The notes under the pieces are model-generated. The model was given only the letters and a program-made list of their open reading frames with translations, searched no databases and was not told where the DNA came from. This document shows, in pieces, positions 2 through 56,356 of a stretch of DNA of 64,000 bases. Origin of the DNA: Candidatus Saccharimonadota bacterium (lineage in GTDB: Bacteria; Patescibacteriota; Saccharimonadia; Saccharimonadales; UBA10212); the NCBI GenBank assembly GCA_022841445.1, contig JALHRM010000001.1:13002-77001 (forward strand), in the 5' to 3' direction. Positions within the stretch are counted from its first letter, which is position 1. Each line of letters begins with the position of its first letter. Position numbers and translations under genes: made by a program.

Positions 2-1225
2 AATAAAAACATAGTTAAAGACAATACTGGCTACACTTATAAACTTGGTGATTCATACCTGCAGGGCTTAGACCAGTACGACTTGATTGTGCGTTCACCC
101 GGTATCCACCCCAGTAAAATTAAGTCAGCGAATCCTGATTTTCCAGACATCCTAAATAATGTAACCAGCAACGTTAACGAGTTTTTTGCTACCTGCCCGA
201 CTAAAAACATTATCGGCGTAACCGGAACAAAAGGAAAAGGCACGACGTCAACACTTATAACCCGGATGCTAGAAGCCACGGGTAAAACCGTGCACCTAGC
301 CGGAAATATAGGTACAGCGCCTCTTGAGCTACTGCCTGCCATAAACGCAGATGATTGGGTGGTGCTAGAACTAAGCAGTTTTCAACTGATTGACTTAAAA
401 ACCTCTCCGCGTATTGCAATTTGCCTGATGGTCGTCGATGAACACCTGGATTGGCATGCCGACCGCCCCGAATACATATATGCAAAACAGCAGCTATTCG
501 CTCATCAGAAAGAAGCAGATACGGCTATATATATGGCACAAAATCACCCTTTAACTATCGAAATAGTAAACGCCACTAACGGCAAAAAAATAGGCTTTAT
601 GGAAAGTCCAGGCGCCCATATAGATAAAAATAAAATTATTATCGATGACACCGCCATTTGTGAACTAGATGATGTTAAGCTGCCCGGCAAGCACAATTGG
701 CAAAATATTTGTGCCGCCGTAACAACGGTCTGGCAAGTAAGCAAAGATGCTGACACTATACGAGGTGTGCTCACTAACTTTCATGGATTGCCACACCGTA
801 TCGAACTAGTACGAGAATTCGAGAACGTTCGATTCTATAATGACTCCTTCGCTTCGAATCCCGGCGCGACCATAGCAGCTGCACATTCGGTGAGTGGACC
901 GAAAGTACTCATCATTGGCGGTTTCGATAGGATGCTTGATCTAACACAACTAGCAAGCGAACTGCTCAAAATAAAAGACGAATTTCGTAAGATAATGCTC
1001 ATCGGTGCATCGGCCGGGCGGCTAAAGAAAGTGATGGACGAAGCGGGCTTGAGTAATACGATTATCTGCACAGCTCAAACAATGCCCAAAATCATTGAAC
1101 ACGCCCGCTTTTTTGCCAAAAAGGGAGATTCGGTAGTCTTTTCGCCCGGTTTTCCTAGTTTTGACATGTTTAAAAACTTTGAAGACCGCGGCAATCAATT
1201 TAAAAAAACTGTGCAAGACCTATGA
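2..1225 (+). CDS. murD: UDP-N-acetylmuramoylalanine--glutamate ligase MurD (5' end cut by window edge)
   Basis: The frame is open from nt 2 (..DLIVRSPGIHP..). It has the Mur-ligase P-loop GVTGTKGKGTTS and central and C-terminal Mur ligase regions. The TGA stop overlaps the next ATG (ATGA at 1222-1225). Confidence 0.85.
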   Translation, partial: NKNIVKDNTGYTYKLGDSYLQGLDQYDLIVRSPGIHPSKIKSANPDFPDILNNVTSNVNEFFATCPTKNIIGVTGTKGKGTTSTLITRMLEATGKTVHLAGNIGTAPLELLPAINADDWVVLELSSFQLIDLKTSPRIAICLMVVDEHLDWHADRPEYIYAKQQLFAHQKEADTAIYMAQNHPLTIEIVNATNGKKIGFMESPGAHIDKNKIIIDDTAICELDDVKLPGKHNWQNICAAVTTVWQVSKDADTIRGVLTNFHGLPHRIELVREFENVRFYNDSFASNPGATIAAAHSVSGPKVLIIGGFDRMLDLTQLASELLKIKDEFRKIMLIGASAGRLKKVMDEAGLSNTIICTAQTMPKIIEHARFFAKKGDSVVFSPGFPSFDMFKNFEDRGNQFKKTVQDL

Positions 1226-2508
1226 AATACCAGAAGTTTATTTTTAAGAACTACGAGTTTGATGCGTCTTCAGGGATACTAAATCTTTACTACAGTTACG
1301 ACGATACTATTAATTTTGTAGAAACATATGTCTTTGACTTCCCGCTCAAACAATATGATGAACAAGCAGCCAAGCGGGCAATTGAGATACTATTTTTTGT
1401 AGCCGGTGTTTCCTATTACAAGACCTACTTGGCGAAGGAAATAGTTGTTGAGTCGGGTTTGATAGATGCGCCAACTGCTAGTTTTCTGGAACGAACATAT
1501 CAGCGTGGGCTTGGCGAATTTTTCTATATAAACAGACTTAGTCCAAATACGCCGGTTACTTTTCCCGTGAACAGTGAATCACTGCCTACTGTTAATCACT
1601 CATCGCGCACGGGGCTACTCATTGGCCTGGGCGGAGGCAAAGATTCTTTGGTAAGTGTTGAAATTTTAAGGAATCAGCCAAATGCAGCCACCTGGAGTCT
1701 GGGGCACAAAGAACAACTTGAACCTTTGACTAAAAAAATTGGACTTCCCCATTTTTGGGTACAAAGAACATGGGACAAAACACTACTTGAACATAATAAA
1801 TTAGGCTACAACGGGCACGTACCGATATCGGCAATCTTCGCCTGCGTTGGAACAATTGTGTCCGTTTTGTCAGGCTACCTGGATGTAGTGGTGTCTAACG
1901 AACAGTCTGCCGGCGAACCAAATTTGGTTTACCAGGGAATCGAGATTAATCATCAATATTCCAAGTCTCCTCAGTTCGAGAAAGATTACCAAGGACTGCT
2001 GCATATAAAATTCGGTGAATCAACACGTTACTACTCACTGCTCAGACCACTAAGCGAAGTGTACATCGCTAAAATTTTTTCAAAAATAGCTTTTCAAAAG
2101 TATAAGTCGCTGTTCAGTTCGTGCAACAAAGCCTTTACCCATAGCAGTAATTCAATGAGTTGGTGCGGGGATTGTCCTAAATGCGCATTTACTTTCCTAA
2201 TTTTCACGCCGTTTATCGATAAAGCCGAGCTTGAATCGATATTTGGTGGTAAAAACCTGCTGCTTTCCGAAGCACTAGAACCTACTTACCGACAACTGCT
2301 TGGTATCGAAGGAACAAAGCCTCTTGACTGCGTCGGCGAAATCAAAGAGTCTCGTTTTGCCATGAGACTTGCCCAGGAAATATACCCCGAGCTTAGTAAG
2401 TATGTGTTCGATATTCCGGATTCGTACAATTACACAAAAATGTCAGCCCACTTTATGCCTGAAGAAATATACCCCGAACTTATTGAAACAATAGATAAAA
2501 TTACTTAG
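1222..2508 (+). CDS. PP-loop ATP-pyrophosphatase-like protein, candidate MurL-type epimerase (hypothesis)
   Basis: The 428-aa ORF is translationally coupled to murD. It has a GLGGGKDS motif (SGGxDS-type PP-loop) about 145 aa in and a WCGDCPKC cysteine cluster. I could not recognise the N-terminal 140 aa. Confidence 0.4.
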   Translation: MKYQKFIFKNYEFDASSGILNLYYSYDDTINFVETYVFDFPLKQYDEQAAKRAIEILFFVAGVSYYKTYLAKEIVVESGLIDAPTASFLERTYQRGLGEFFYINRLSPNTPVTFPVNSESLPTVNHSSRTGLLIGLGGGKDSLVSVEILRNQPNAATWSLGHKEQLEPLTKKIGLPHFWVQRTWDKTLLEHNKLGYNGHVPISAIFACVGTIVSVLSGYLDVVVSNEQSAGEPNLVYQGIEINHQYSKSPQFEKDYQGLLHIKFGESTRYYSLLRPLSEVYIAKIFSKIAFQKYKSLFSSCNKAFTHSSNSMSWCGDCPKCAFTFLIFTPFIDKAELESIFGGKNLLLSEALEPTYRQLLGIEGTKPLDCVGEIKESRFAMRLAQEIYPELSKYVFDIPDSYNYTKMSAHFMPEEIYPELIETIDKIT

Positions 2509-3308
2509 CTGGTTGTGCGTTGAGCCGCACGGATGACATTTTCGAACAATGCACAGACAGTCAGCGGCCCTACCCCGCCTTTTTCAGGGGTAATGGTGAT
2601 ATCGGGTAGCTCACGAACAGCAGGGTCAACATCACCAACCAGGCCATTTTTGTCTGTCGCCACACCGGCATCGACAATAACAGCATTCTGCTTTAGCATA
2701 TCGGCTTTAATAAGGTTTGGCACACCAGTTGCCGTAACAATAACATCGGCATCTTTCAGTTCTTCATATAAATCTGTCTGACGATTGGCGACGATTGGCT
2801 TCAAACTAGATTGTCCCCACATACGAGCCAGTGGAGCACCAACAAGCCGGCCACGACCGACAATAACCAGTTTTTTGCCCTCTAAAGCAACGTTGTAGCC
2901 AGCCAGTAGCCAGATAATTGCCATTGGAGTGGCAGGGTCAAATGTAGTCTTTGCCGCTAAACCATCGACGTCTTTTTCGGCTGCCACGGCGTTAAGAACT
3001 TCGTCCGTACCCTCAGGATCAGGGAGCGGGATTTGAACAATCATGCCGTGTACTGATGCATCGTCATTCAGTTCGCGAATCTTTGCTGCGGCGTCCTTTT
3101 GATCAACAACAACTATGTCGACCTCAATACCGATGTCATTGCCATACCCTTGTTTGAGTCGCATATAGCTATCAACGACCGGATCCGGATTTGTCCGAAT
3201 GATTGCCAGTTTGGGCTGCACATTATGCGCTTGGCGGAGTGCCCGGACTGTTTTGGCCTGGCGCTCTTTAATAAAGCCGGCTAATTCCCGACCGTTCAAA
3301 ATTTTCAT
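2505..3308 (-). CDS. folD: Bifunctional methylenetetrahydrofolate dehydrogenase/cyclohydrolase FolD
   Basis: MKILNGRELAGFIKERQ.. N-terminus, a Rossmann segment VIVGRGRLVGAPLA, and GGVGPLTVCALFENV near the C-terminus. Length is 267 aa. Confidence 0.9.
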   Translation of the reverse strand: MKILNGRELAGFIKERQAKTVRALRQAHNVQPKLAIIRTNPDPVVDSYMRLKQGYGNDIGIEVDIVVVDQKDAAAKIRELNDDASVHGMIVQIPLPDPEGTDEVLNAVAAEKDVDGLAAKTTFDPATPMAIIWLLAGYNVALEGKKLVIVGRGRLVGAPLARMWGQSSLKPIVANRQTDLYEELKDADVIVTATGVPNLIKADMLKQNAVIVDAGVATDKNGLVGDVDPAVRELPDITITPEKGGVGPLTVCALFENVIRAAQRTTS

Positions 3309-3339: not shown

Positions 3340-3663
3340 CTAAACTACGGGGTTTGGCGGAGTAGTCGTACCATCAGTTGAAGTTGAATCACCTTCAGGC
3401 TGAGCTGGTTCACCCATAGGAGTTGCTGGTTGTTCAGAAGTTGGGGCGGGAAACGGTGCGGCTGCAGCAGGTGGCTCAGTCGATACTGGGGGTTGCTCCG
3501 GTGCTAGATTCGGTGAAGGTGGTTCCTGCGGCGGAGCAGTTTGTGTTGGAGGAGTTACATCCTGTACTACCTCTGTTGGTAGTTCCTGCGCAGGACTGGC
3601 CGATGGTATTGTCTGTTGGTCTGCGGGCTTAGATTTTCCGAACAATTTGCTTAAAAAACTCAT
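3340..3663 (-). CDS. Proline-rich low-complexity protein (hypothetical)
   Basis: 107-aa ORF immediately upstream of folD on the same strand. Composition is P/A/E/T-rich and disordered, with no recognisable domain. Confidence 0.45.
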   Translation of the reverse strand: MSFLSKLFGKSKPADQQTIPSASPAQELPTEVVQDVTPPTQTAPPQEPPSPNLAPEQPPVSTEPPAAAAPFPAPTSEQPATPMGEPAQPEGDSTSTDGTTTPPNPVV

Positions 3664-3798: not shown

Positions 3799-3828
3799 AT
3801 ATGATAAGTGAGAGGTTCTAGTTGTTCT

Positions 3829-6384
3829 ATGTCAAAAAATAGCCCGTCCAGTTGGACTAAACTACAATCAAACCTGCAGATAGTAACTGCATCCTTGATT
3901 TTTGTGTCATCACTACTATTACCGATATTTTCTTATACCAAATCATACGCTGCACCAGCGACACTACTAAATGGCGGTCTTGAGCAAGTAACCGGCACTA
4001 CACCTGATTGTTTTAGTCAATCTGGCTGGGGTGATCACGATTTAGCATGGGAACTAACCGATGATACGCACTCTGGCAATGTCGCGCAGTCAGTTACCAT
4101 CGGCAACTATGTCAGTGGTGACCGCAAACTTATGATGACCGAAAACGCTGCCTGTGCGCCCGCGGTTATTCCCGGAGAAGCATACAACATATCCCTGTGG
4201 TACAAGTCATCGTCAATCAGAAACTCACTTACCGTGTTCCGACACTCAGTTGCTGGCTGGACATATTGGACAGACTTAAAAGCCCTGCCTGTAACAGATG
4301 CCTGGACTGAGGTTACAGCAACAACTCCGGCAATACCCGCGGGCACAGACCAAATTTCGTTTGGTGTTTCTATATCGGCAGACGGCACACTCGTCACTGA
4401 TGATTACGGTTTAACGCGAGTTGGCGGTGACCCTGAACCAGAACCTGAGCCAGAACCGCCCACCGAGCTAAGCGTTAATCCAGGCTTGGAAGAAGGTGGT
4501 AACCCGCCGGCTAATTGGTTCTTGGCGGGTTGGGGTGACGCCGCAGTTAACGCTACCGTTACAAATGATGCACATAGCGGCGACCGAGCATACACAATTG
4601 AGCTAAACGGCCGCACGCAAGGTGATTTCAAACTCATACCGACCGAAGCCTCTGCGCCTCAGGTACAGCCAGGAAACATATACAATCTCTCGGCATGGTA
4701 CAAATCTACTACCGATCAAAATAGCGTTACGATTTTTGCCCACACCGCAGCCGGATGGGGATATTGGACTGATCTTCAGACACTACCAATGGCAAATGAT
4801 TGGACAAAGTTCACTATTGCAACACCTCAAATACCTCCGGGCATCGACGCCATCGCCTGGGGCGTGTCAATTTTTGGCGATGGAACGCTTGTTACCGACG
4901 ATTATTCAACAATGCTTCAAGGTCAGGCAGCACCACCACCCGAAGGCCCGGCCACTCAAGGCGAATGGACAGTGCTGGATTACGAGCTACCAATTCGTGC
5001 TATACATTCCACTCTGCTTTATAACGGCAAAGTGCTGCTTATAGCTGGTTCCGGCAATAGTGTTGAAGACTTTGAGGCAGGCACATTTAAGGCAAGCATC
5101 TGGGATCCAATCAGTGGGGTATTTAACACGCTTGATGTGCCTAAGGATATGTTCTGCGCCGGTCATGTAACACTGGCTGACGGGAGAGTTCTTATACAAG
5201 GCGGCACTAAATCTTACCCAACTACTGCCACTGCAGCTGATTACGGTGGCTTGAAAGATTCCTGGATTTTTGACCCAGAAACTGAAACGTTCACCGCCAC
5301 AAACGATGCTAATGAAGGACACTGGTACCCAACGCTTACGCAGCTAGGCAACGGCGATGTATGGATGGCAGGAGGCTTGAAAGAAGATACTACTGGTGCA
5401 GTCAATACTGAGTACTTCGACTTTGAAACAGAACAGTGGCTGCCTACAGGGCAAGTTCCGCAAACATGGTCGTTCTGGGGGCTTTACCCGCATATGTTCC
5501 TGATGCAAGATGGTCGTTTGTTCTACAGTGGCGGGCACACTTTCGGCAATAATATACCCGGTACCGGCGCAGCAATCTACGATTACCAAAATGCCACCAT
5601 TGCTGAGGTTCCTGGTCTCCGCGAAAAAGACATGCGGGATCAGTCAGCATCAGTCCTACTTCCACCAGCTCAAGATCAAAAAGTGCTCATCACGGGTGGC
5701 GGGAACATCAATACTGCAAACCCTGGCATCAAACTAACTGACATTATTGACCTAAAACAACCAAACCCTATTTACCAACCTGGGCCAGACCTACCAGGAC
5801 TTGGCAAAATGTATGTCAATGCAACTATCCTGCCTGATCGAACAGTATTCCTAAGTAATGGCGGCCAGCTTAACCGTGATGATTCCACCAACGTGATGAC
5901 CGCCGCCGTATACGACCCCGAAACCAACACCATGAAGCCTGTAGCGGCCGACCCAATCGGCCGTAACTACCACAGTTCTTCGGTACTATTACCTGACGGA
6001 CGTGTAGTAGTGCTTGGATCTAATCCAGGTGATGGCACATTCGAAATGCGAATTTCTGTCTACCAGCCGCCATATTCCTTCCGTACTGTTCGCCCAGATA
6101 TCACCAATGCCCCCACTCAAGCAACGTATGGCCAAAGCTTTAATTTCAACGTTAATGCTCCAAACAAACTTGTTAAGTGGGCGCAGCTTTTGCGACCAAT
6201 GTCAGTTACACACCAGACCGATTCAAACCTTCGACTTGTAGACCTGCCAATTGCGGTCAATAACGGTATTGCTACAGTGACCGTTCCTGAAAACTCCAAC
6301 TTACTGCCTCCTGGCCCGTACATGCTTACTATCACAGATTCTGACGGGATCCCTTCGATTGCAACGTGGATAATGATCCGTTAA
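3829..6384 (+). CDS. Secreted CBM-CBM copper-radical oxidase (galactose/glyoxal oxidase, AA5/GlxA-like)
   Basis: N-terminal signal/TM segment, two paralogous ~150-aa CBM_4_9-like modules joined by a PEPEPEPEPP linker, then a kelch propeller plus DUF1929-like C-terminus. Motifs include FCAGH (Cys codon 5155-5157), GHWYPT (Tyr 5326-5328), RNYHSS (Tyr-His 5968-5973) and SVTHQTD (His 6211-6213). The start could instead be GTG 3808. Confidence 0.75.
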   Translation: MSKNSPSSWTKLQSNLQIVTASLIFVSSLLLPIFSYTKSYAAPATLLNGGLEQVTGTTPDCFSQSGWGDHDLAWELTDDTHSGNVAQSVTIGNYVSGDRKLMMTENAACAPAVIPGEAYNISLWYKSSSIRNSLTVFRHSVAGWTYWTDLKALPVTDAWTEVTATTPAIPAGTDQISFGVSISADGTLVTDDYGLTRVGGDPEPEPEPEPPTELSVNPGLEEGGNPPANWFLAGWGDAAVNATVTNDAHSGDRAYTIELNGRTQGDFKLIPTEASAPQVQPGNIYNLSAWYKSTTDQNSVTIFAHTAAGWGYWTDLQTLPMANDWTKFTIATPQIPPGIDAIAWGVSIFGDGTLVTDDYSTMLQGQAAPPPEGPATQGEWTVLDYELPIRAIHSTLLYNGKVLLIAGSGNSVEDFEAGTFKASIWDPISGVFNTLDVPKDMFCAGHVTLADGRVLIQGGTKSYPTTATAADYGGLKDSWIFDPETETFTATNDANEGHWYPTLTQLGNGDVWMAGGLKEDTTGAVNTEYFDFETEQWLPTGQVPQTWSFWGLYPHMFLMQDGRLFYSGGHTFGNNIPGTGAAIYDYQNATIAEVPGLREKDMRDQSASVLLPPAQDQKVLITGGGNINTANPGIKLTDIIDLKQPNPIYQPGPDLPGLGKMYVNATILPDRTVFLSNGGQLNRDDSTNVMTAAVYDPETNTMKPVAADPIGRNYHSSSVLLPDGRVVVLGSNPGDGTFEMRISVYQPPYSFRTVRPDITNAPTQATYGQSFNFNVNAPNKLVKWAQLLRPMSVTHQTDSNLRLVDLPIAVNNGIATVTVPENSNLLPPGPYMLTITDSDGIPSIATWIMIR

Positions 6385-14813: not shown

Positions 14814-15287
14814 ATGAGCATTAAATTCATTGCGGCTATCGACGCGAACCGAGGTATCGGCAAGAACGGGAAGTTACCGTGGGATCTGCCAAACGACCGG
14901 GCTCAGTTTTATGAAAAAGTAAAAAACGGGCATGTACTGATGGGAAGCAGTACATATTCCGAATTACGTGGCAAGATAGAGCACATTGCTCACTGCACTA
15001 TTTTTTCTAGTCATAAGTACGGAGCCGATGATATTCAAACGGTCGACGATCCACTTAAATACATGAAGACCCTAAACTCGGATGTCTGGGTCATAGGAGG
15101 GGCATCCATTTACGAGCTACTTATGCCATTCGCGGATGAACTACACATTACCCAAATTGAAGCAATTTTTGACTGTGACAGATATTTTCCAGAATTTAAG
15201 AAAAATTTTTCTCTAGCAGAAGAAAGTCCACCAATGTTAGAAAATGATATAACGTACAAATTCCAAGTTTGGAAGCGAAGTAATTAA
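14814..15287 (+). CDS. folA: Dihydrofolate reductase
   Basis: The IAAIDANRGIGKNGKLPWDLPNDRAQF N-terminus matches the DHFR signature, followed by VWVIGGASIYE. Length is 157 aa. Confidence 0.85.
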   Translation: MSIKFIAAIDANRGIGKNGKLPWDLPNDRAQFYEKVKNGHVLMGSSTYSELRGKIEHIAHCTIFSSHKYGADDIQTVDDPLKYMKTLNSDVWVIGGASIYELLMPFADELHITQIEAIFDCDRYFPEFKKNFSLAEESPPMLENDITYKFQVWKRSN

Positions 15288-25373: not shown

Positions 25374-25895
25374 TTGGTGTTGAGTAAATCAAACCTAAGA
25401 CAGATTCTAAAGACCGAGCGACTCAGGCTCAGCAATGACCAATTAGCTTCAATAAGTAGAATAATTTGCGATAAAGCCTACCAATCTATTGACTGGCAGA
25501 ATGTCACTACTGTGCATCACTACATGGCGATTTCAAGGAGCAATGAAGTTGATTGTGAAAGCCTACTAGACAAAATTCGCCGTAATCACCCGCATATTTT
25601 GACGATGACATGGTTGGATAATAAAAATTTTTCCATACGCGCATCGGGTCTAGATAACAGCTCCGAATTGCGGGATAGTATGCTTTTTGATGTCATCATT
25701 GTTCCGATGCTCGGATTTAACAATGACCGACACCGACTTGGTTACGGTGGTGGATTTTACGATCAATTTCTAGCAACACAGCCACAAGCAAAAAAAATTG
25801 GACTATGCTTTAGTGCTGGAAATACTGAGAAACTGCCGGTAGAAGAGCACGATATAGCACTTGATATGATCATTACGGAAGATCAAATCTTGTAA
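25374..25895 (+). CDS. 5-formyltetrahydrofolate cyclo-ligase
   Basis: The IVPMLGFNNDRHRLGYGGGFYDQFL motif is typical of MTHFS. TTG start; 173 aa. Confidence 0.75.
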   Translation: MVLSKSNLRQILKTERLRLSNDQLASISRIICDKAYQSIDWQNVTTVHHYMAISRSNEVDCESLLDKIRRNHPHILTMTWLDNKNFSIRASGLDNSSELRDSMLFDVIIVPMLGFNNDRHRLGYGGGFYDQFLATQPQAKKIGLCFSAGNTEKLPVEEHDIALDMIITEDQIL

Positions 25896-29601: not shown

Positions 29602-30633
29602 ATGCATTTACAAGAAAATCAGACCCTAAAGAACCTGAGCACTATGCGGCTTGGTGGTATCACGCGTTACTATACTGAACTACATTCACATGAAGACGTG
29701 GTGGCTGCCAATGCTTGGGCAAAAGAAAACAATGTTGAGCTCCGGGTTATAGGTGGCGGTTCGAATATTTTTTTTGACGACAGTGGTTTTTCGGGACTCA
29801 TAGCAGTGTGTAAACTTAAGGGTATTGAAATTGTTGACGACACCGATAGATCCACTACCATAACAGCAGCAGCTGGCGAAAATTGGGATGACTTGGTTGG
29901 TTTTTGTGTTGCCAGAAATCTTTCCGGTATAGAAACACTGAGCTTGATACCGGGGAGTGTTGGCGCAGCTCCTGTCCAAAATATTGGTGCTTACGGACAA
30001 CAACTTGCGGATAGTTTTGTTGAGCTAGAGGCTTACGATGTTACGAACAGCCAAATGGTAAAACTTGCAAAAGATGACTGTAACTTTGGTTACCGGAGTA
30101 GCCAGTTCAAAGGCATCAATGTGCAACGGTATATCATAACCTCTGTGACGCTTATACTTTCTAAAACACCAACTCTAAAACCACCGTTTTACAAAGATAT
30201 CGAACAGTTTTTTACTGGAAAGCACATGCCAGTTGATACGTCTCCAAAGCATATACGCGAAGCAGTCCTCTATATCCGACGCAACAAATTGCCCGACCCG
30301 GCCGTTGTCGCCAATAACGGCTCTTTTTTCAAATTACCTATTGTCACCGCCGAGCACTTGGCTGAAATTCGTAAAAAATGGCCGGATCTTCCAGCCGACA
30401 CGGTTGACGACGGCAAACTCAAAGTCCGCACTGGCTGGATACTGGAAAAATTAGGTTACAAGGGCTACCGACACCCCAATGGCATGGGAACGTTTGATAA
30501 TCAGGCTATGGTAGTAGTGAATTACTCCGCCGAATCATCGAAAGACTTGCTAGACTTTGTCGATCAAATCAAAAGCGATGTCCATAAAGAAACCGGGATC
30601 ACACTCGAAAACGAACCAGAACTCATCAAATAA
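29602..30633 (+). CDS. murB: UDP-N-acetylenolpyruvoylglucosamine reductase MurB
   Basis: LSTMRLGGITRYY..VIGGGSNIFFDD FAD-binding N-terminus and a MurB C-terminal domain. Length is 343 aa. Confidence 0.85.
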   Translation: MHLQENQTLKNLSTMRLGGITRYYTELHSHEDVVAANAWAKENNVELRVIGGGSNIFFDDSGFSGLIAVCKLKGIEIVDDTDRSTTITAAAGENWDDLVGFCVARNLSGIETLSLIPGSVGAAPVQNIGAYGQQLADSFVELEAYDVTNSQMVKLAKDDCNFGYRSSQFKGINVQRYIITSVTLILSKTPTLKPPFYKDIEQFFTGKHMPVDTSPKHIREAVLYIRRNKLPDPAVVANNGSFFKLPIVTAEHLAEIRKKWPDLPADTVDDGKLKVRTGWILEKLGYKGYRHPNGMGTFDNQAMVVVNYSAESSKDLLDFVDQIKSDVHKETGITLENEPELIK

Positions 30634-30651: not shown

Positions 30652-31926
30652 TCACTTGTCGCTTGGGAGTGGGTACTTAGAAGCAAACTCACTTACTATT
30701 GCTTTTAATTTCTTGAGCTGATCAGGCTTGTTTCGACCGACGATAGCTGCATTCATCCACTCCGCGACTAGCGCCATATCGTCCTCATTAAGTCCACGAC
30801 TGGTAATTGCCGGCGTGCCAAGCCGTAAGCCGCTTGGGCGGAACGGTGGTAATGGATCATTTGGTATCGAATTGCAATTTGCTGTTAAGCCTATTTCATC
30901 CAAGATGTCCTGAGCTTCACGACCAGTAACCTCAAAACTTTTCATCATATCGATCTGTATGAGGTGGTTGTCAGTGCCGTTGGTTACAAGTTTGAATCCA
31001 CGGTTCATAAGCTCATCAGCCAGACGTTTGGCATTTTTTAGTACCTGTTTGGCATATGTTTGAAATTCCGGTTGCTGGGCTTCGCCAAATGCCACTGCTT
31101 TTGCTAGTACATTATTCATGTGTGGGCCACCCTGGAAGCCAGGAAATACTTCGCGGTCAATCAGTGTTGGCAGGTTTTCCACTGTTTTGTCTGGTGCTTT
31201 CAGCGGATTACCTACAGTACCGCGAGTCAAAATCATGCCACCGCGCGGACCACGGAGCGTCTTGTGTGTGGTCGTTGTAATGATGTGGAATCCAAAATCG
31301 AAAGGATTTGGCAAGGCTTTACCGGCAATAAGACCAGCTATATGCGCCATATCTGCCATCAAGACAGCGCCGACTTCGTTGCCAATGGAAGCAAACTTTT
31401 CATAGTCTAGTGCCCGTGGATACCCTGAGAATCCTGCAAGCAAAATCTTCGGCTTTTCCTTCTTGGCAACTTCACGCATGGCGTCATAGTCAATTTCGCC
31501 TGTTTCAATGTCTTTTATACCGTAGCGAACAAATTTATACAGTTTGGCGCTGCTGGTAACCGGGTGGCCGTGAGTAAGGTGCCCACCCTGATCTAGCTGC
31601 ATAGCCATGACGCAGTCACCAGGCTCGAGCCAGGCTTGATAAACGGCAATGTTGGCCGGTGCGCCGCTGTGTGGCTGTACATTAGCGTGGTCAGCGCCAA
31701 AAAGCTGCTTCGCCCGATCGATAGCCAATTGTTCTACCTTGTCGGTATTTTCCTGGCCACCATAGTAACGCTTTCCAGGGTAGCCTTCAGAGTATTTGTT
31801 GGTATAAATACTGCCAAGTGCGTCAAGTACGTCGCGGCTGACGTAGTTTTCAGAAGGAATGAGTTCCAGTCCCTGCCGTTGTCGTTTTTCCTCAGCTTCA
31901 AGAAGTTCTTTCAGGGTTTTATTCAT
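30652..31926 (-). CDS. glyA: Serine hydroxymethyltransferase
   Basis: ELIPSENYVS, the PLP-lysine region TTTTHKTLRGPRGG, and a length of 424 aa. Confidence 0.95.
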   Translation of the reverse strand: MNKTLKELLEAEEKRQRQGLELIPSENYVSRDVLDALGSIYTNKYSEGYPGKRYYGGQENTDKVEQLAIDRAKQLFGADHANVQPHSGAPANIAVYQAWLEPGDCVMAMQLDQGGHLTHGHPVTSSAKLYKFVRYGIKDIETGEIDYDAMREVAKKEKPKILLAGFSGYPRALDYEKFASIGNEVGAVLMADMAHIAGLIAGKALPNPFDFGFHIITTTTHKTLRGPRGGMILTRGTVGNPLKAPDKTVENLPTLIDREVFPGFQGGPHMNNVLAKAVAFGEAQQPEFQTYAKQVLKNAKRLADELMNRGFKLVTNGTDNHLIQIDMMKSFEVTGREAQDILDEIGLTANCNSIPNDPLPPFRPSGLRLGTPAITSRGLNEDDMALVAEWMNAAIVGRNKPDQLKKLKAIVSEFASKYPLPSDK

Positions 31927-32078: not shown

Positions 32079-33602
32079 ATGAATGCAACAAATGCAAAGA
32101 TTGGCCGCCTTATACACCAAATAAGGCAAGAACGTGGTCTTACACAAGCAGAATTTGCTCGAAAACTTGGCACTAGTCAGTCTGCCGTCAATCGTATTGA
32201 GCACGGTAATCAGAACCTAAGTCTTGAGACGCTTGGCCGCATTAGCGATACTCTCAACAAACAACTTATCAGCCTTAATTCTGGTGCAGTAAATCTGCGT
32301 GTCGAAGGCGGCCGCGAACTAAAAGGTACTATTGAAGTTAAAACTTCCAAAAATGCTGCCGTTGCCTTGCTCTGTGCCAGCCTACTCAACAAAGGCACAA
32401 CCAGGCTTAAGAAAGTCGCCCGCATTGAAGAGGTCAACCGAATCATCGAAGTTCTGCAAAGTATCGGTGTACATATTCGCTGGGTGAACGAAACAGACCT
32501 GGAAATAAAACCTCCAGCTCAACTAAATCCTGAGAGCATTAATAAAGAATCTGCTAAGAAAACTCGAATAGTCATCTTGCTTGCCGGTGCACTGATGCAT
32601 GAACACGATACGTTCAAAATTCCTTATGCTGGTGGTTGCGAACTTGGCAAGCGGACAGTTCTACCCCATTTGTATGCACTTGAAGAATTTGGCACATCTG
32701 TTACGGCGAAGAGCGGACATTACCACATCGCCGTCAATCGTCACTTGCCTAAACGCCCGATTGTTTTATACGAATCAGGTGATACAACCACAGAAAACGC
32801 CATCATTGCCGCTGCACGTACGCCTGGCGAGACAATCATTAAGATGGCTAGCGCCAACTACCAAGTACAAGATCTTTGCTTTTTCCTCAAACGACTTGGG
32901 ATCAAAATCGAAGGTATAGGCACAACTACGCTTCGCATTCAAGGTGTACGGACTATCAAAAAGAACATTAGTTACTCACCAAGCGAAGACCCGGTCGAAG
33001 CCATGACGTTTATATCAGCTGCCATTACCACTAATTCAGAAATTACCATCAAACGAATACCAATTGAATTTTTGGAACTTGAACTACTGAAGCTCGAAAA
33101 AATGGGCGTCAATTACACAATGTCAAAGCCATACAAAGCCGACAATGGCAACACTGATCTGGTCAATATTACAGTGCATAAACACAATGGTTCACTAAAA
33201 GCACCCGAGGAAAAGATTTATGGTCGTCCGTACCCTGGCTTTAACATCGACCACGTTCCGTATTTTGTGCCGATTGTCGCCGTCGCTCATGGTCGCAGCC
33301 TGATACATGACTGGGTATTCGAAGACCGCGCCCTTATGTTCACTGAGATGAAAAAAATCGGCGTCAAGCTAGAATTAGCCGATCCACACCGCGTATTCAT
33401 CGAAGGTCCGACTACTTGGCGATCCGCCGATGTCGTTTGCCCGAACGGCCTCCGACCGGCAGTCATGCTGCTTATCGGCATGTTGGCAGCACCCGGCACA
33501 TCAGTGTTGCGCAATGTTTACACCATAAATAGGGGTTATGAAGACCTCGCTGCCCGTTTTAATAGTCTAGGTGCCAGTATTACTGTCCTAAACGACGTTT
33601 AG
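32079..33602 (+). CDS. murA: XRE HTH domain fused to UDP-N-acetylglucosamine 1-carboxyvinyltransferase MurA
   Basis: Aa 1-65 are IGRLIHQIRQERGLTQAEFARKLGTSQSAVNRIEHGNQN (HTH_3). MurA follows from LRVEGGRELKGTIEVKTSKNAAVALL, with the active-site loop PYAGGCELGKR (Cys retained). It is one uninterrupted ORF with no internal Met at the junction. Confidence 0.8.
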   Translation: MNATNAKIGRLIHQIRQERGLTQAEFARKLGTSQSAVNRIEHGNQNLSLETLGRISDTLNKQLISLNSGAVNLRVEGGRELKGTIEVKTSKNAAVALLCASLLNKGTTRLKKVARIEEVNRIIEVLQSIGVHIRWVNETDLEIKPPAQLNPESINKESAKKTRIVILLAGALMHEHDTFKIPYAGGCELGKRTVLPHLYALEEFGTSVTAKSGHYHIAVNRHLPKRPIVLYESGDTTTENAIIAAARTPGETIIKMASANYQVQDLCFFLKRLGIKIEGIGTTTLRIQGVRTIKKNISYSPSEDPVEAMTFISAAITTNSEITIKRIPIEFLELELLKLEKMGVNYTMSKPYKADNGNTDLVNITVHKHNGSLKAPEEKIYGRPYPGFNIDHVPYFVPIVAVAHGRSLIHDWVFEDRALMFTEMKKIGVKLELADPHRVFIEGPTTWRSADVVCPNGLRPAVMLLIGMLAAPGTSVLRNVYTINRGYEDLAARFNSLGASITVLNDV

Positions 33603-48768: not shown

Positions 48769-49548
48769 TTATAGAGTTTTTGCATAATTCACGGCGTTTT
48801 CAAAAATCGGCAAACCATGCGGCTTATCTATCATTTGTCGACGCCAATTGGGGTGTTGGTACGGAGTAACGAATCGCTCGGGGTGAGGCATCATCCCGAA
48901 AATCAATCCGCTCGGGTCACATAATCCTGCGATAGCATATAGCGAGCCATTTGGGTTTTGCGGGTATGCTTGAGTGAGTTTGCTGTTTGCAGTATATTGC
49001 AGCGTTGTCAGGTTCTGTTCTTTAATTTTCTTGAATGTATCATTATCGGCATGGAACTTACCTTCACCATGTGCAATTGGCAGACTCAGTTTTGTTCCTT
49101 CCATGCCTTTGGTGAATATACAGTGATTGCTAGTGGGAGTTAGTTCGATCCATCTACATTCAAAGTGACCGGAATCATTATTGGTAAGCGTGGCGTGCAT
49201 ATCGCCGAGACGAGAAAGAGGCAACAGTCCGGTTCGTACAAGCACCTGAAACCCATTACATATGCCGATTACCGGCTTTTTCGCTGCCACGAAACTGCTT
49301 ATCTGCTGCTTTAAAAAACTCAGTAATTCAACTGCCAATATTTTACCCGAGGCAACATCATCACCATACGAAAACCCGCCCGGTATGCCTAATATTTGAT
49401 AGTCAGATAGCTTTTTTTCGCCGCTTCTTAGCTGGTTCACATGTACATAGTCCGGCTTTGCACCTGCAAGCGAAAAAGCGAAGGCTAATTCTTCATCACA
49501 ATTAGTTCCATCGGTACGAAGTATGCAGACGCTTGCAAGATTCGGCAT
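48769..49548 (-). CDS. purQ: Phosphoribosylformylglycinamidine synthase, glutaminase subunit PurQ
   Basis: Starts MPNLASVCILRTDGTNCDEE. GGFSYGDD, the GICNGFQVL nucleophile Cys and MPHPER are present. The ATG overlaps the purL stop (TAATG), so the longer track ORF was rejected. Confidence 0.85.
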   Translation of the reverse strand: MPNLASVCILRTDGTNCDEELAFAFSLAGAKPDYVHVNQLRSGEKKLSDYQILGIPGGFSYGDDVASGKILAVELLSFLKQQISSFVAAKKPVIGICNGFQVLVRTGLLPLSRLGDMHATLTNNDSGHFECRWIELTPTSNHCIFTKGMEGTKLSLPIAHGEGKFHADNDTFKKIKEQNLTTLQYTANSKLTQAYPQNPNGSLYAIAGLCDPSGLIFGMMPHPERFVTPYQHPNWRRQMIDKPHGLPIFENAVNYAKTL

Positions 49549-52409
49549 TAGTGAAAAATCTCCTTCATTGGTTGCTGCCAGGCACTCTTCAAATGCTGCG
49601 AGGCTACTGAAAAAATATTTTTGCCACCCTGTGAAACAGAAATTGACTGATCTTTTGTGGTTGTGCCAATAATCGCACAAGGCACGCCAGCAAAATGCTT
49701 CGCAGCGACAGACTCACTCGCCAGTTCGACGATAAAACAGCCGGCAGTCTCACTAAACAACACTTCTTCAGGATGCACATCACCAAAACTATCGAGACTT
49801 ATATCGACCCCGACTCCGCCGCCAAAACTCATCTCGGCTAACGTAGCTGCCATTCCACCTTCGCTGATATCGTGGCAGGCAAGTATATCACCGCTAGTTA
49901 TTCCAGCATGAAGCGCCTGAAAAAGCGCCGGCAAGCCTTCAAGGTCAACCTTGGGCAATCTGCCACCATAAGCCTTTGTTTCAACAAATATTGATCCTCC
50001 GAGTGCGCCGACATCCAGCTTGCCAATGAGCGCAAGTACCGAGTCATGGGACTTAAAGTCAGATGATACCGTCTTTCGGGCATCTTCAATAGGGCCAAAC
50101 GCCGATACGCATAGCACCGGTGGAATTTTTAGTACAGTCTCGTCTGGGTAGCGATACGTGCTGGATAGACTGTCCTTGCCTGACACAAAAGGAATCTTAA
50201 AGGTGTCCGATACTGCAATACACGCGTCAAGAGACATATCTAAAGCCCCTAGTGAATCTTCATCAGGAAATGGCCAAATAAAATTATCGATAAGCCCCAG
50301 TTTGCGGTAATCGGCACCCACTGCAACCACGTTCGACAATGCTTCAGTGGCAGCCCAGACGCTCCCCCAGTAAGGGTCAATCTTATTCAAAACCGGGTTA
50401 AGCCCGTGCCCTACTACTGCTCCAATATGTTTATCTAGAAACGGCGTAACTACAGAAGAATTATTCGGAGCATCGCTATCAACACCAGTAAATGGAGGAA
50501 GATTACTCGTACCCTGCACACCGTGATCATAGAGACGGACGATGGGTTCTTTTGAGCAGACATTGTAGTCGCCCATGACGCGCTGATATGTTTCTTCCCA
50601 GTCTGATATAACCGGCATTTTTGCCTTAGCAAATGACGGCTGCTTCCATGAAGCTTGCATAACCCTCTGTGGCAAACCGTCGTGTAAGAAGCTCATCGGT
50701 AGATCACAAACTACATCATTTTCGTACATCACTGTAAGATTCTTTTTGCCTGTAAAGCTCCCTATAACTGACGCCTCGACATTCAGCTTGCCGCATATTG
50801 CAAAGAATTCTCGCTCGTCTTTTGGATCAATTGCAACGACCATGCGTTCCTGTGATTCGGAAATCCATATTTCCCATGGTGCTAGTCCCGGGTATTTAAG
50901 CGGTGCTTTTTCAAGATTGATTAATACTCCGGCTTCCTCACCCATTTCACCAACAGCCGATGAAAACCCACCTGCACCACAATCTGTAATAGCCCGAATG
51001 AGTCCGGCATCCCTCGCAGCCAATATGGCATCAGTTGTTCTTTTTTCTTCAATAGCATTGCCTATTTGCACAGCGGATGAATTGACCGAAATCGTATCGG
51101 CAGTCATTTCACCGCTGCTGAATGTCGCTCCATGAATGCCGTCTCTTCCCGTTCGACCACCCATAGCAATAATCAGATCGCCTTTTTTTGGAACACCTTT
51201 TTGAGCTCGCTCTTCGGGTATCAAACCATATGCGCCGACAATCACAGAGGGCTTGGCTTTAAAATCTTCATGAAAATGTATCGAACCGTTATTGGTCGGG
51301 ATACCCATGCGGTTACCGTAATCACGAACACCTGCAACAACACGCCTGAGCAAGTAACGCGGGTGCAAGCAACCTGGAGGCAACTCGCCATCAGATAAGT
51401 CTGGGGGCGCAAAACAAAACATGTCAGTTGACACAATAACCTTCGCACCCTGACCTGTGCCAATAATGTCGCGAAATACGCCCCCGCTGCCCGTAGCAGC
51501 ACCACCGTATGGTTCAATAGCCGAAGGGCTGTTATGTGTTTCAACTTTGCCGCTGAAGCCCCAGCCATCGCTTAAGCGCATTACTCCTGCGTTATCTACG
51601 AATGCCGAAATGACGTTTTCATCGTATTTTTTTGTAGCCTGCATGAGACGTTTAATGAGTGGTGTTTTTTCTTTGCCATCAACTATCAACTTGGCCTTAA
51701 ATGTTTTATGACCGCAGTGTTCACTCCAGGTCTGAGCCAATGTTTCGAGTTCCACGTCAGTTGGTTCTCGCTTGATAGACCGGTAATATTCCTGAATTAC
51801 TTTCATCTCTTCAAGATTCAGAAAGAATTGGCCGTCTTTAGATAGCTGCTCTAGCTCACTGTCCGACAATTCTAAAATTGGTACAGATTTTGATGCTGGA
51901 CTCTTGCCTTTGATGGTCAACGTTTTAGGCGACTCTTTCAGTACAATTTCGACCGTTTTATTACGAAGCAGTCGGTCAAGTATGGCGTCTATGTCTTTAT
52001 CACTCGGCGTACCATAAAAATGATACTCCCACGAACTATCGACCGCTTCGAGGCTACCAATGCCCAGGTCTTTTGCAGCCTTTAGTATTGAGGCTGCTTC
52101 GGGATTCATGACACCGGGGCGGTAGGAAACCTCAGTTTTTTTGTCTGCATCATTCAAAATTTGTCGGTTGATGACATAATGATTGCTCAGCGCTTCTGAT
52201 AACAAGTTGTCGGCCAAATTTTTGACTTCAGTTTCGGTAATGCCTTGAAGTCGATAGACGCGCACCATTTTTAATGAAATTACACCACCAATGCCTAGTG
52301 TGCTTTTTATTTCGGACAATACATCTTCGGCGCGCGGGTCTAAGCCATTCGAGAGTACCCTCAATTCCTGAATAACACGCTCGCTGGTTGTGCGCGGTTT
52401 TACGGTCAC
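49548..52409 (-). CDS. purL: Phosphoribosylformylglycinamidine synthase PurL with two N-terminal PurS-like repeats
   Basis: At 953 aa it is about 210 aa longer than a small PurL. The N-terminus has two PurS-like units (..LDPRAEDVLSEIK..VRVYRL.. and ..MNPEAASILKAAK..). Two AIR-synthase-like repeats follow, with ETHNSPSAIEPYGGAATG. GTG start with a GGGAG SD. Confidence 0.85.
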   Translation of the reverse strand: MTVKPRTTSERVIQELRVLSNGLDPRAEDVLSEIKSTLGIGGVISLKMVRVYRLQGITETEVKNLADNLLSEALSNHYVINRQILNDADKKTEVSYRPGVMNPEAASILKAAKDLGIGSLEAVDSSWEYHFYGTPSDKDIDAILDRLLRNKTVEIVLKESPKTLTIKGKSPASKSVPILELSDSELEQLSKDGQFFLNLEEMKVIQEYYRSIKREPTDVELETLAQTWSEHCGHKTFKAKLIVDGKEKTPLIKRLMQATKKYDENVISAFVDNAGVMRLSDGWGFSGKVETHNSPSAIEPYGGAATGSGGVFRDIIGTGQGAKVIVSTDMFCFAPPDLSDGELPPGCLHPRYLLRRVVAGVRDYGNRMGIPTNNGSIHFHEDFKAKPSVIVGAYGLIPEERAQKGVPKKGDLIIAMGGRTGRDGIHGATFSSGEMTADTISVNSSAVQIGNAIEEKRTTDAILAARDAGLIRAITDCGAGGFSSAVGEMGEEAGVLINLEKAPLKYPGLAPWEIWISESQERMVVAIDPKDEREFFAICGKLNVEASVIGSFTGKKNLTVMYENDVVCDLPMSFLHDGLPQRVMQASWKQPSFAKAKMPVISDWEETYQRVMGDYNVCSKEPIVRLYDHGVQGTSNLPPFTGVDSDAPNNSSVVTPFLDKHIGAVVGHGLNPVLNKIDPYWGSVWAATEALSNVVAVGADYRKLGLIDNFIWPFPDEDSLGALDMSLDACIAVSDTFKIPFVSGKDSLSSTYRYPDETVLKIPPVLCVSAFGPIEDARKTVSSDFKSHDSVLALIGKLDVGALGGSIFVETKAYGGRLPKVDLEGLPALFQALHAGITSGDILACHDISEGGMAATLAEMSFGGGVGVDISLDSFGDVHPEEVLFSETAGCFIVELASESVAAKHFAGVPCAIIGTTTKDQSISVSQGGKNIFSVASQHLKSAWQQPMKEIFH

Positions 52410-54799: not shown

Positions 54800-56356
54800 C
54801 TAGGTGGCCATGACTGATACACCGCCGCGGCGTGGATCGCCTGCGCCACTCATATTACCTGTTACCAGGTTGTGCTCAACGGCTTGAACGCCGCCAAAAA
54901 ATAAATTCCGCTCTTTCCAGACGTTAACGTTATAGCCGAATCGAGCAAGTTTAGTCGTTTCCGCATCTACAAAACCACCCTCTATTTCTACCAGTTCGCC
55001 CTCACAGTGAATGCGTGGAGCACTGACCGCCGACTCAATAGGCAACTGTTGATCGAGAACATTGAGGATGGTCTGAAGTACTGCACTGCGAATACGGTTG
55101 CTGCCAGCACTACCGACGGCCAGACGAGGCTTACCGTTTTCGAGAATAATAGTCGGTGACATCATGCTAGTTGGTCGATGCCCTATGGAGTGCTTATAAA
55201 AACCAGCCGGGTTCAAATCTTCCTCACCCAAAATGTTATTAAGAAAAATCCCCGTACCTGGCACTGCAATACCTGAACCCGAGCCATTACTGCTCGTCAT
55301 GCTGACAGCATTGCCCAGGGAGTCCATTACCGAAAAATGCGTAGTGTTGCCAAGTCGCGAACTCAAACGAATGTGGTCATCATGCATTTTGGCATCGGCT
55401 AGCAGCCAATCCAAAACATCACCGTCGTTGATGTAAGCATCGAGGCGCTTCCGACGCACAGCATTGGTGCGCATCATGGCTTCAATTAGATGCTGCAGAT
55501 ACTCAAAAGAACCGTAGGAAATCGATGCCAGATCGTATTTTTCCAAAAGCTTCAACGTGTGCGCTATCAATGCGCCACCAGAAGACGGCGGTGGATTGGT
55601 GTATATCTGGTAACTGCGATATGAACTTTCAATAGGCTGTCTGGAAATTACTTTATACGCAGCTAAATCTTCTGCAGTAATCAGACCACCGCCCGCCTCG
55701 ACTTCTTTGAGTATTGCTGAAGCAATGTCACCACCTATTAACGTTTGCCCCTTGGTTGAGGCAATGTCCTGCAAACTACCTGCGATGTCAGGATTAAATA
55801 GTTTATCGCCTTGTTTTAGTAAATTCCCATCTTTGTAGAAACACTTACGCATATCCGACGATAACTCAAAGACGCCTTTTAGAATAAGATTTAGGTACTC
55901 CTGTTGTTCGGTTTGCACTACACCGTTTCTGGCTAGATGAACCGCCGGCTGGATAAGCTCACTAAGTGGCATTGTGCCGTATCGTGAATGCGCCTCGCAA
56001 AGTCCCAAGGCGACTCCCGGCACCGCAACAGTCGAATGCCCACCATGGAACATCTGCACAGTGCTGCCAAAATCCACAGGAGTTGGTATCATTTTTGAAA
56101 TAGCACGCGACTTATCTAAGCCCTTACCGGGCATAGCAACAAAGAAGTCCAGGAGTTGGTTTTGTCCGGATTCTGTATCGTGAACGAGCATAAACCCGCC
56201 ACCGCCTAAGCTCGTCAGCAAAGGTTCCGCTACACATGCTGCAAAACCAGCTGCAATGGCTGCATCCATAGCATTGCCGCCAGCTTCCAACACCAACTTC
56301 CCGGCTTCAGCGGTCGCCGGGTGTCCGGCAGCGATGACGCCTTTCGTTTTCGGCAT
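54800..56356 (-). CDS. ggt: Gamma-glutamyltranspeptidase
   Basis: The AAGHPATAEAG..GGNAMDAAIA N-terminus, the autoprocessing/nucleophile region GNTTHFSVMD, and GGVQAV near the C-terminus. Confidence 0.85.
   Translation of the reverse strand: MPKTKGVIAAGHPATAEAGKLVLEAGGNAMDAAIAAGFAACVAEPLLTSLGGGGFMLVHDTESGQNQLLDFFVAMPGKGLDKSRAISKMIPTPVDFGSTVQMFHGGHSTVAVPGVALGLCEAHSRYGTMPLSELIQPAVHLARNGVVQTEQQEYLNLILKGVFELSSDMRKCFYKDGNLLKQGDKLFNPDIAGSLQDIASTKGQTLIGGDIASAILKEVEAGGGLITAEDLAAYKVISRQPIESSYRSYQIYTNPPPSSGGALIAHTLKLLEKYDLASISYGSFEYLQHLIEAMMRTNAVRRKRLDAYINDGDVLDWLLADAKMHDDHIRLSSRLGNTTHFSVMDSLGNAVSMTSSNGSGSGIAVPGTGIFLNNILGEEDLNPAGFYKHSIGHRPTSMMSPTIILENGKPRLAVGSAGSNRIRSAVLQTILNVLDQQLPIESAVSAPRIHCEGELVEIEGGFVDAETTKLARFGYNVNVWKERNLFFGGVQAVEHNLVTGNMSGAGDPRRGGVSVMAT

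Follow-up and report, generated by a model that had tools for sequence, protein, structure and literature searches.

How does a member of the Saccharimonadales obtain the D-glutamate of its cell wall? The question is raised by the first genes of a stretch of 64,000 nucleotides from Candidatus Saccharimonadota bacterium (contig JALHRM010000001.1, positions 13,002 to 77,001; hereafter the window), where a murD gene overlaps the open reading frame (ORF) of a 428-amino-acid (aa) protein. A sequence-only reading of this DNA had suggested that the two proteins ligate L-glutamate to the peptidoglycan precursor and then epimerise it, in the manner of MurD2 and MurL. Our analysis supports this suggestion through a MurL family match, MurD2 residues in the ligase and a conserved pairing of the genes, and the overlapping genes, which we call murD and murL, most likely encode the MurD2/MurL alternative D-glutamate route of peptidoglycan precursor synthesis. 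The first proof of this pathway came from Xanthomonas oryzae (Feng et al. 2017, cited after PMC8788868), and MurL activity is known for the enzymes of X. oryzae, Micromonospora and Salinispora (PMC8788868).

The window has a G+C content of 44.9%, and the pair with its junction is laid out as follows.

2..1225, plus strand: murD, which loses its 5' end to the window edge and encodes a UDP-N-acetylmuramoyl-L-alanine (UDP-MurNAc-L-Ala) ligase of the MurD2 type, predicted to add L-glutamate, with Mur_ligase_M and Mur_ligase_C domains, a TIGR01087 match and MurD2 residues.
1222..2508, plus strand: murL, the 428-aa ORF, with matches to NF041275 and to the Pfam families MurL_N and MurL_epimerase_C and identity to Stenotrophomonas and Xanthomonas MurL.
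1222..1225, plus strand: ATGA, in which the murD stop TGA (1223-1225) overlaps the murL start ATG (1222-1224).

The murD frame runs uninterrupted from the first base of the window, and about 30 N-terminal residues of its product are missing there, full-length orthologues having 433-441 aa. The ORF coordinates agree with the shared ATGA described by the sequence-only reading, and the two motifs it had picked out in the downstream protein, GLGGGKDS and CGDCPKC, are found at aa 135-142 and aa 315-321. Its description of the former as an SGGxDS PP-loop holds for the loop itself but not for its letters, which read GGGKDS with Gly for the first Ser of the classical motif. It had also remarked that the 428-aa ORF is not a usual neighbour of murD in the division and cell wall (dcw) cluster, and indeed the murD of the window lies outside any such cluster; in its closest relative, genes for a response regulator and a CHAP-domain protein stand upstream, whereas the E. 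coli order is mraY-murD-ftsW. At the other end of the pair, murL (plus strand) and folD (minus strand) converge, and their stop codons overlap at 2505-2508, where TTAG provides TAG on the plus strand and TAA on the minus strand. The overlapping stops therefore leave no space for an intergenic terminator, and the same convergent arrangement occurs in the relatives L082 and L086.

For the identity of the 428-aa protein, a profile search against MurL and other PP-loop families gave MurL as the best match, in line with the possibility raised by the sequence-only reading. Specifically, the protein matched NF041275, the NCBIfam model for the UDP-N-acetyl-alpha-D-muramoyl-L-alanyl-L-glutamate epimerase of Xanthomonadales, with an E-value of 1.3e-98 and 330 bits over residues 4-383 (380 of 428 residues). 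Precomputed annotation places PF26299 (MurL_N) and PF26298 (MurL_epimerase_C) on the identical protein P0001 and on every orthologue examined. The protein is 37-39% identical to the MurLs of S. maltophilia and Xanthomonas (E ~1e-70), being their sole match in the window, and 33-40% identical to the MurLs of 80 mainly proteobacterial loci. It also retains every invariant position of two alignments, 41 in A1 (18 sequences, including some close to Xanthomonadales MurL) and 27 in A2 (79 sequences). Its nearest homologues are 59-79% identical, and those with names come mostly from Candidatus Saccharimonadales, Saccharibacteria or Patescibacteria metagenome-assembled genomes. By sequence, the product of the 428-aa ORF is a MurL homologue.

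Compared with proteobacterial MurL, the window protein has the same family assignments, a similar length, linkage to a MurD-like ligase and a common set of invariant motifs (GGGKDS, NGHVP, NHQ.SK, SCN, WC..C.KC and KP.(E/D)CVGE). It differs in a shorter and divergent C-terminal tail, where the NF041275 match stops at residue 383 of 428 and about 12 residues are deleted, in an identity of only 33-40%, and in a score below the Xanthomonadales-tuned cut-off. The gene order is murD→murL in the window versus murL→murD2 in Proteobacteria, and the host belongs to the Saccharimonadales (Patescibacteria, candidate phyla radiation (CPR)), a group missing from the published distribution of MurL. The motifs lie at these positions.

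1624..1647, plus strand: GLGGGKDS, a PP-loop-like nucleotide-binding motif, with G138, G139 and S142 invariant and G137, K140 and D141 at least 90% conserved.
1810..1830, plus strand: NGHVPIS, a candidate active-site element, with N197, G198, H199 and P201 invariant.
1945..1968, plus strand: INHQYSKS, a candidate active-site element, with N243, H244, Q245 and K248 invariant.
2116..2184, plus strand: the four-cysteine cluster SSC301NK ... WC315GDC318PKC321, each Cys at least 90% conserved across the 79 sequences.
2164-2184, plus strand: CGDCPKC, within this cluster.
2326..2340, plus strand: DCVGE, with C370 invariant and an invariant E376 three residues downstream.

C301, C315, C318 and C321 may form a structural metal (Zn) site. 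C370 is a candidate acid/base residue for proton exchange at Cα, and together with H199, H244 and K248 it makes up a set of candidates for removing and returning the proton at the alpha-carbon. An AlphaFold2 model of the protein, built with the 79-sequence alignment, was confident, with a predicted local distance difference test (pLDDT) score of 96.6 and a predicted template modelling (pTM) score of 0.94. A sequence search of the PDB with the protein found no solved relative. The best Foldseek matches of the model were weak (1e-2 at best, about 110 residues) and fell mostly among PP-loop ATP pyrophosphatases, including N-acetyl-sugar amidotransferase, LarE, GMP synthetase and argininosuccinate synthase. 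When PDB sequences were searched with a profile, TtuA (E 8e-4) and MnmA came up, around the GGGKDS loop only. Such PP-loop-like matches fit the published ATP-to-AMP enzymology of MurL. A QueC- or TilS-type reading of the protein was rejected, since its likeness to other PP-loop families is limited to the nucleotide loop. The PP-loop ATP pyrophosphatases with cysteine clusters (TtuA, MnmA, LarE, QueC, N-acetyl-sugar amidotransferase) resemble MurL in their glycine-rich xGGxDS loop on a Rossmann-like core, their AMP-forming activation chemistry and a nearby multi-Cys motif. MurL differs from them in having its own N-terminal domain and in inverting a stereocentre through the peptide carboxylate, with no transfer of sulfur or nitrogen.

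The second question is whether the ligase is of the MurD or the MurD2 type. The window ligase scored 299.7 bits on the TIGR01087 murD model (cut-off 212), and the ligases adjoining murL in S. maltophilia and Xanthomonas, used as controls, scored 298 bits. These equal scores make the label 'D-glutamate ligase' uninformative on chirality. The residues near the glutamate say more. X. oryzae MurD2 departs from E. coli MurD there at D182→E197, K348→R358, A414→P433 and L416→F435; an E197D/R358K double mutant of X. oryzae MurD2 switches completely to D-Glu, and a K319T mutant of E. coli MurD gains acceptance of L-Glu (PMC8788868, review by Ogasawara and Dairi). When the window ligase was aligned with MurD and MurD2 at the Glu-binding residues, a comparison proposed by the sequence-only reading, it carried the MurD2 state at all four published positions (D182→E, K348→R, A414→P, L416→F) and K319→F besides. 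The codons concerned, all assigned by alignment, are as follows.

440..442, plus strand: Glu at E. coli MurD D182 (X. oryzae MurD2 E197), context VVD-E-HLDW.
848..850, plus strand: Phe at E. coli MurD K319, which is Lys in three of three canonical MurDs.
929..931, plus strand: Arg at E. coli MurD K348 (MurD2 R358), context GGFD-R-M.
1154..1162, plus strand: Pro-Ser-Phe at E. coli A414-S415-L416 (MurD2 P433 and F435), context SPGF-P-S-F-D.

The canonical MurDs read, at E. coli positions 182/319/348/414/416:

E. coli MurD: D, K, K, A, L.
P. aeruginosa MurD: D, K, K, A, L.
S. agalactiae MurD: T, K, R, A, W.

We then compared 105 MurL-linked MurDs, comprising 77 mainly proteobacterial ones, 21 fusions and 7 from the Saccharimonadales group. 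Where the K319 position holds a residue (103 sequences, two more being gapped), it is never Lys but Ile, Phe, Leu or Asn, and the L416 position is always Phe or Tyr where aligned. The remaining positions are nearly as uniform, with Arg for K348 in 99 of the 105, Pro for A414 in 93 and Glu for D182 in 92. The loss of K319 as a marker was derived in the present comparison, and the published K319T result supports it. L-Glu-adding MurDs seem recognisable by two simple sequence markers, the loss of Lys at 319 and Phe or Tyr at 416.

Set against known enzymes, the window ligase resembles MurD2 in being built as a Mur ligase, in carrying Glu, Arg, Pro and Phe where MurD2 departs from E. coli MurD, in having a hydrophobic residue at the K319 position and in its adjacent murL. 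It differs from proteobacterial MurD2 in Phe versus Ile at the K319 position and Ser versus Thr at the T321 position, and its overall identity to MurD2 is 26-28%. With canonical E. coli MurD (PDB 1E0D, 2UAG and others), which the glutamate racemase MurI supplies, it has in common the fold, acyl-phosphate ligation onto UDP-MurNAc-L-Ala and about 30% identity, and both pass TIGR01087. Yet it departs from that enzyme at every tested position of the Glu pocket (D182, K319, K348, A414, L416), and its gene, outside a dcw cluster, is coupled to murL rather than reliant on free D-Glu. The residues at these positions support a MurD2-type ligase with predicted specificity for L-Glu.

The third question is whether the two genes belong together. 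The sequence-only reading had regarded a pairing absent from related genomes as a point that could overturn its proposal. We found murD→murL on the same strand, with murD immediately upstream, in six of six relatives, whose MurLs are 79, 63, 62, 50, 43 and 40% identical to that of the window. The ATGA overlap recurs in five of them (L082, L084, L086, L087, L088), and in the sixth murD and murL abut, so the overlap is not a chance juxtaposition. The genes flanking the pair vary: close relatives have the response regulator upstream and folD downstream, and in distant ones the neighbours are SecA with an FKBP protein, or an M16 peptidase. A scan of a genome collection with a MurL alignment gave the 80 loci mentioned above, mostly from Xanthomonadales/Lysobacterales (Stenotrophomonas, Xanthomonas, Dyella, Lysobacter, Rhodanobacter, Frateuria, Pseudoxanthomonas), the remainder being some Alphaproteobacteria and one Solirubrobacteraceae. 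In 77 of these 80 mainly proteobacterial loci murL adjoins a murD homologue, in the reversed order murL→murD2 and equally tightly.

Beyond adjacency, the two enzymes also occur as one chain. A HMMER search of 1.84 billion representative sequences with MurL returned 2,438 clusters (50% identity) at E <= 1e-3, and more than 5,900 of 8,000 candidates scored were MurL homologues. Among the best 150 of the 2,438 clusters there are at least 21 single-chain MurD/MurL fusions of about 800-900 aa, in either order.

MurD-MurL order: P0122 (869 aa), P0129, P0139, P0165.
MurL-MurD order: P0150, P0154, P0164, P0166, P0167, P0191, P0197, P0198, P0205, P0211, P0229, P0234, P0237, P0238, P0247, P0256, P0262.

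Since both domain orders occur, at least two independent fusion events must have taken place, and these, with the adjacency across phyla, are strong evidence that ligase and epimerase act in one pathway. From the repeated fusions, the L-Glu intermediate is perhaps handed or channelled directly from ligase to epimerase.

On this basis the pathway would run in two steps. The MurD2-type ligase would use ATP to join L-glutamate, not D-glutamate, to UDP-MurNAc-L-Ala. MurL would then take ATP at its GGGKDS loop, convert the alpha-carboxylate of the terminal L-Glu to an acyl-adenylate and epimerise the residue one way, from L to D, after which MurE would proceed as usual. The 4-nt ATGA overlap would couple murD and murL as a single operon whose products are presumably made together, and the cell wall could be built without free D-Glu, hence without a glutamate racemase. 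What was computed here is the family to which each sequence belongs, the residues that set specificity, and the conservation of linkage and fusion. The chemistry comes from published enzymology of the Xanthomonas enzymes, according to which MurL converts one ATP to AMP per turnover, acts from L to D only and is proposed to form an acyl-adenylate of the terminal glutamate (PMC8788868). The activity of the window proteins themselves is predicted.

Several observations weigh against this assignment. The enzymology is known only outside the Saccharimonadales group, so that the function here is a predicted one. On NF041275, the 330 bits of the window protein fall far under the curated equivalog cut-off of 700 bits. 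This cut-off is passed by S. maltophilia MurL, the control, with 826 bits, and 10 other high-G+C MurL representatives scored 425-571 bits; one of the best two of these (571 and 549 bits) is 49-53% identical to Xanthomonadales MurL and still does not exceed 571. The model is tuned to Xanthomonadales, and the sub-cut-off score therefore reflects taxonomic distance and is not a sign of another function. As to the ligase, the window MurD is 26-27% identical to Xanthomonadales MurD2 versus 30-31% to the MurDs of E. coli, P. aeruginosa and S. agalactiae, the three that make up the whole canonical contrast set. Because its overall identity is no closer to MurD2 than to canonical MurD, the MurD2 call rests on a few residues and linkage, not on phylogeny. 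Arg already occupies the K348 position in S. agalactiae MurD, which is deposited as a D-glutamate ligase; S. mutans MurD, with Arg at 348, uses D-Glu (PMC8788868); and 12 of the 105 MurL-linked MurDs, including those of the relatives L088 and L089, retain Asp at 182, so that none of these residues decides the matter by itself. Finally, the glutamate racemase of Ca. Saccharimonas aalborgensis is experimentally supported, to go by a title (Peñalver et al. 2024) cited in PMC11974145, and on the strength of that title the phylum as a whole is not racemase-free.

This last point leads to the alternative that survives best, namely that the MurD2/MurL pair is genuine but redundant, the genome also having a glutamate racemase or a D-amino-acid transaminase, so that the pair would be a second route and not a bypass. 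Apart from the racemase activity reported in that title, the reach of the racemase search, about 64 kb of a contig of at least 464 kb, leaves room for it. Within that reach, Pfam scans of the ORFs of at least 150 aa in the window found no murI, Asp/Glu racemase or D-amino-acid (class-IV) transaminase, nor was a racemase or D-amino-acid transaminase present within 8 kb of the pair in three relatives. Furthermore, Glu and Arg at the switch positions should make the ligase reject D-Glu, so free D-Glu would be useless for the wall unless a second murD exists, and the known MurD2/MurL organisms lack D-Glu-forming genes (PMC8788868). We consider redundancy unlikely. For this genome, a bypass of the racemase would be the predicted consequence of the MurD2/MurL route, the murI search having covered the 64-kb window. 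CPR genomes reportedly carry no more than one racemase for Glu or Ala.

Host-associated relatives may have solved the problem differently. In the cultured, host-associated Southlakia epibionticum ML1, murD (SEML1_0230) is an essential gene with htpX, not murL, after it (PMC10633639), and text searches of the S. epibionticum gene tables in that source for 'MurL', 'murI' and 'glutamate racemase' gave nothing. S. epibionticum may thus draw its D-Glu from another source than the environmental lineage of the window does. With murD next to htpX and no named MurL there, host-associated Saccharibacteria may differ, and the phylum may be heterogeneous.

A second alternative keeps MurL as an epimerase and gives it a corrective role: the ligase would be relaxed in specificity or still prefer D-Glu, and MurL would rescue precursor to which L-Glu had been wrongly added. 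The MurL-linked MurDs that keep Asp at position 182, L088 and L089 among them, are compatible with this, as is the finding that S. mutans MurD, with its Arg at 348, takes a little L-Glu (PMC8788868). However, the window enzyme has all five residues in the MurD2 state, including the Glu/Arg pair whose reversal gives D-Glu activity, and the tight operon and the fusions favour obligatory coupling over occasional repair, which makes a corrective MurL quite improbable. That the 428-aa protein is instead an unrelated PP-loop enzyme (QueC, TilS, a tRNA thiolase or an amidotransferase) beside a canonical murD by chance is effectively refuted, for although NCBI's annotation pipeline PGAP calls some homologues 'endonuclease domain-containing protein' or 'hypothetical' and there are weak structural or profile matches to TtuA, MnmA, LarE, GMP synthetase and N-acetyl-sugar amidotransferase, these matches are marginal (E 8e-4 or worse) and span about 40-110 residues around the nucleotide loop, against a MurL match of E 1e-98 over 380 residues and a linkage and fusion with Mur ligase conserved across phyla.

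The window pair, by its sequence, belongs to the known MurD2/MurL pathway and is not a new mechanism; databases already recognise the MurL family through the Pfam models, and some JGI entries are named MurL. What changes is the range of the pathway. The published distribution covers certain Gamma- and Alphaproteobacteria and the Micromonosporaceae, with orthologues verified in Micromonospora and Salinispora (PMC8788868), and in the literature that we searched no paper connected MurL with Saccharibacteria or CPR. The family reaches far beyond the few genera that the literature names, and the view of MurD2/MurL as confined to a few genera, which is the premise for narrow-spectrum inhibitors, needs widening. 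If the pair works as predicted, environmental Saccharimonadales form D-Glu on the precursor itself, without a racemase. Whether MurD2-MurL, and not a racemase, is the usual source of wall D-glutamate across environmental Saccharimonadales and many other uncultured lineages is a proposition to which we give even chances; if true, it would account for the 'missing glutamate racemase' in peptidoglycan synthesis of the CPR, where reconstructions of the cell wall from genomes have left the D-glutamate source unexplained.

Automatic annotation hides the pathway. The ligase is called 'D-glutamate ligase', TIGR01087 being blind to the two kinds, and the epimerase is often 'hypothetical'; NCBI labels several MurL homologues in this way or as 'endonuclease domain-containing protein'. 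In addition, the natural fusions offer single-chain material for structural study of an epimerase that had no solved relative in the sequence search.

Other genes of the window deserve brief mention. Two of them also concern peptidoglycan: murB at 29602-30633 and, near it, a MurA homologue at 32079-33602 (plus strand), with the EPSP_synthase family at residues 75-490 and an N-terminal XRE-type helix-turn-helix (HTH) at residues 8-63. It is unusual for the enzyme that opens peptidoglycan synthesis to carry a DNA-binding domain in this way (HTH-murA). An 858-aa protein at 3808-6384 (plus strand) has two carbohydrate-binding-like repeats, Kelch/glyoxal-oxidase repeats and a galactose-oxidase-like C-terminal domain, and it is kept beside the murD-murL pair in the closest relative, L082. 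Adjoining it is a proline-rich ORF of 107 aa at 3340-3663 (minus strand) with no family match.

Genes of folate one-carbon metabolism (folD, dihydrofolate reductase, 5-formyl-tetrahydrofolate cyclo-ligase and serine hydroxymethyltransferase) are scattered over four positions in the window.

2505-3308, 14814-15287, 25374-25895 and 30652-31926: folate one-carbon genes.

Further on, at 48769-52409, come purL/purQ, and here PurL carries a fused PurS-like segment. The folate and purine genes point to a biosynthetic capacity above that usually credited to host-associated Saccharibacteria. A gamma-glutamyltranspeptidase homologue at 54800-56356 (minus strand; E 1e-114) also handles glutamyl peptides and is probably unrelated to the pair.

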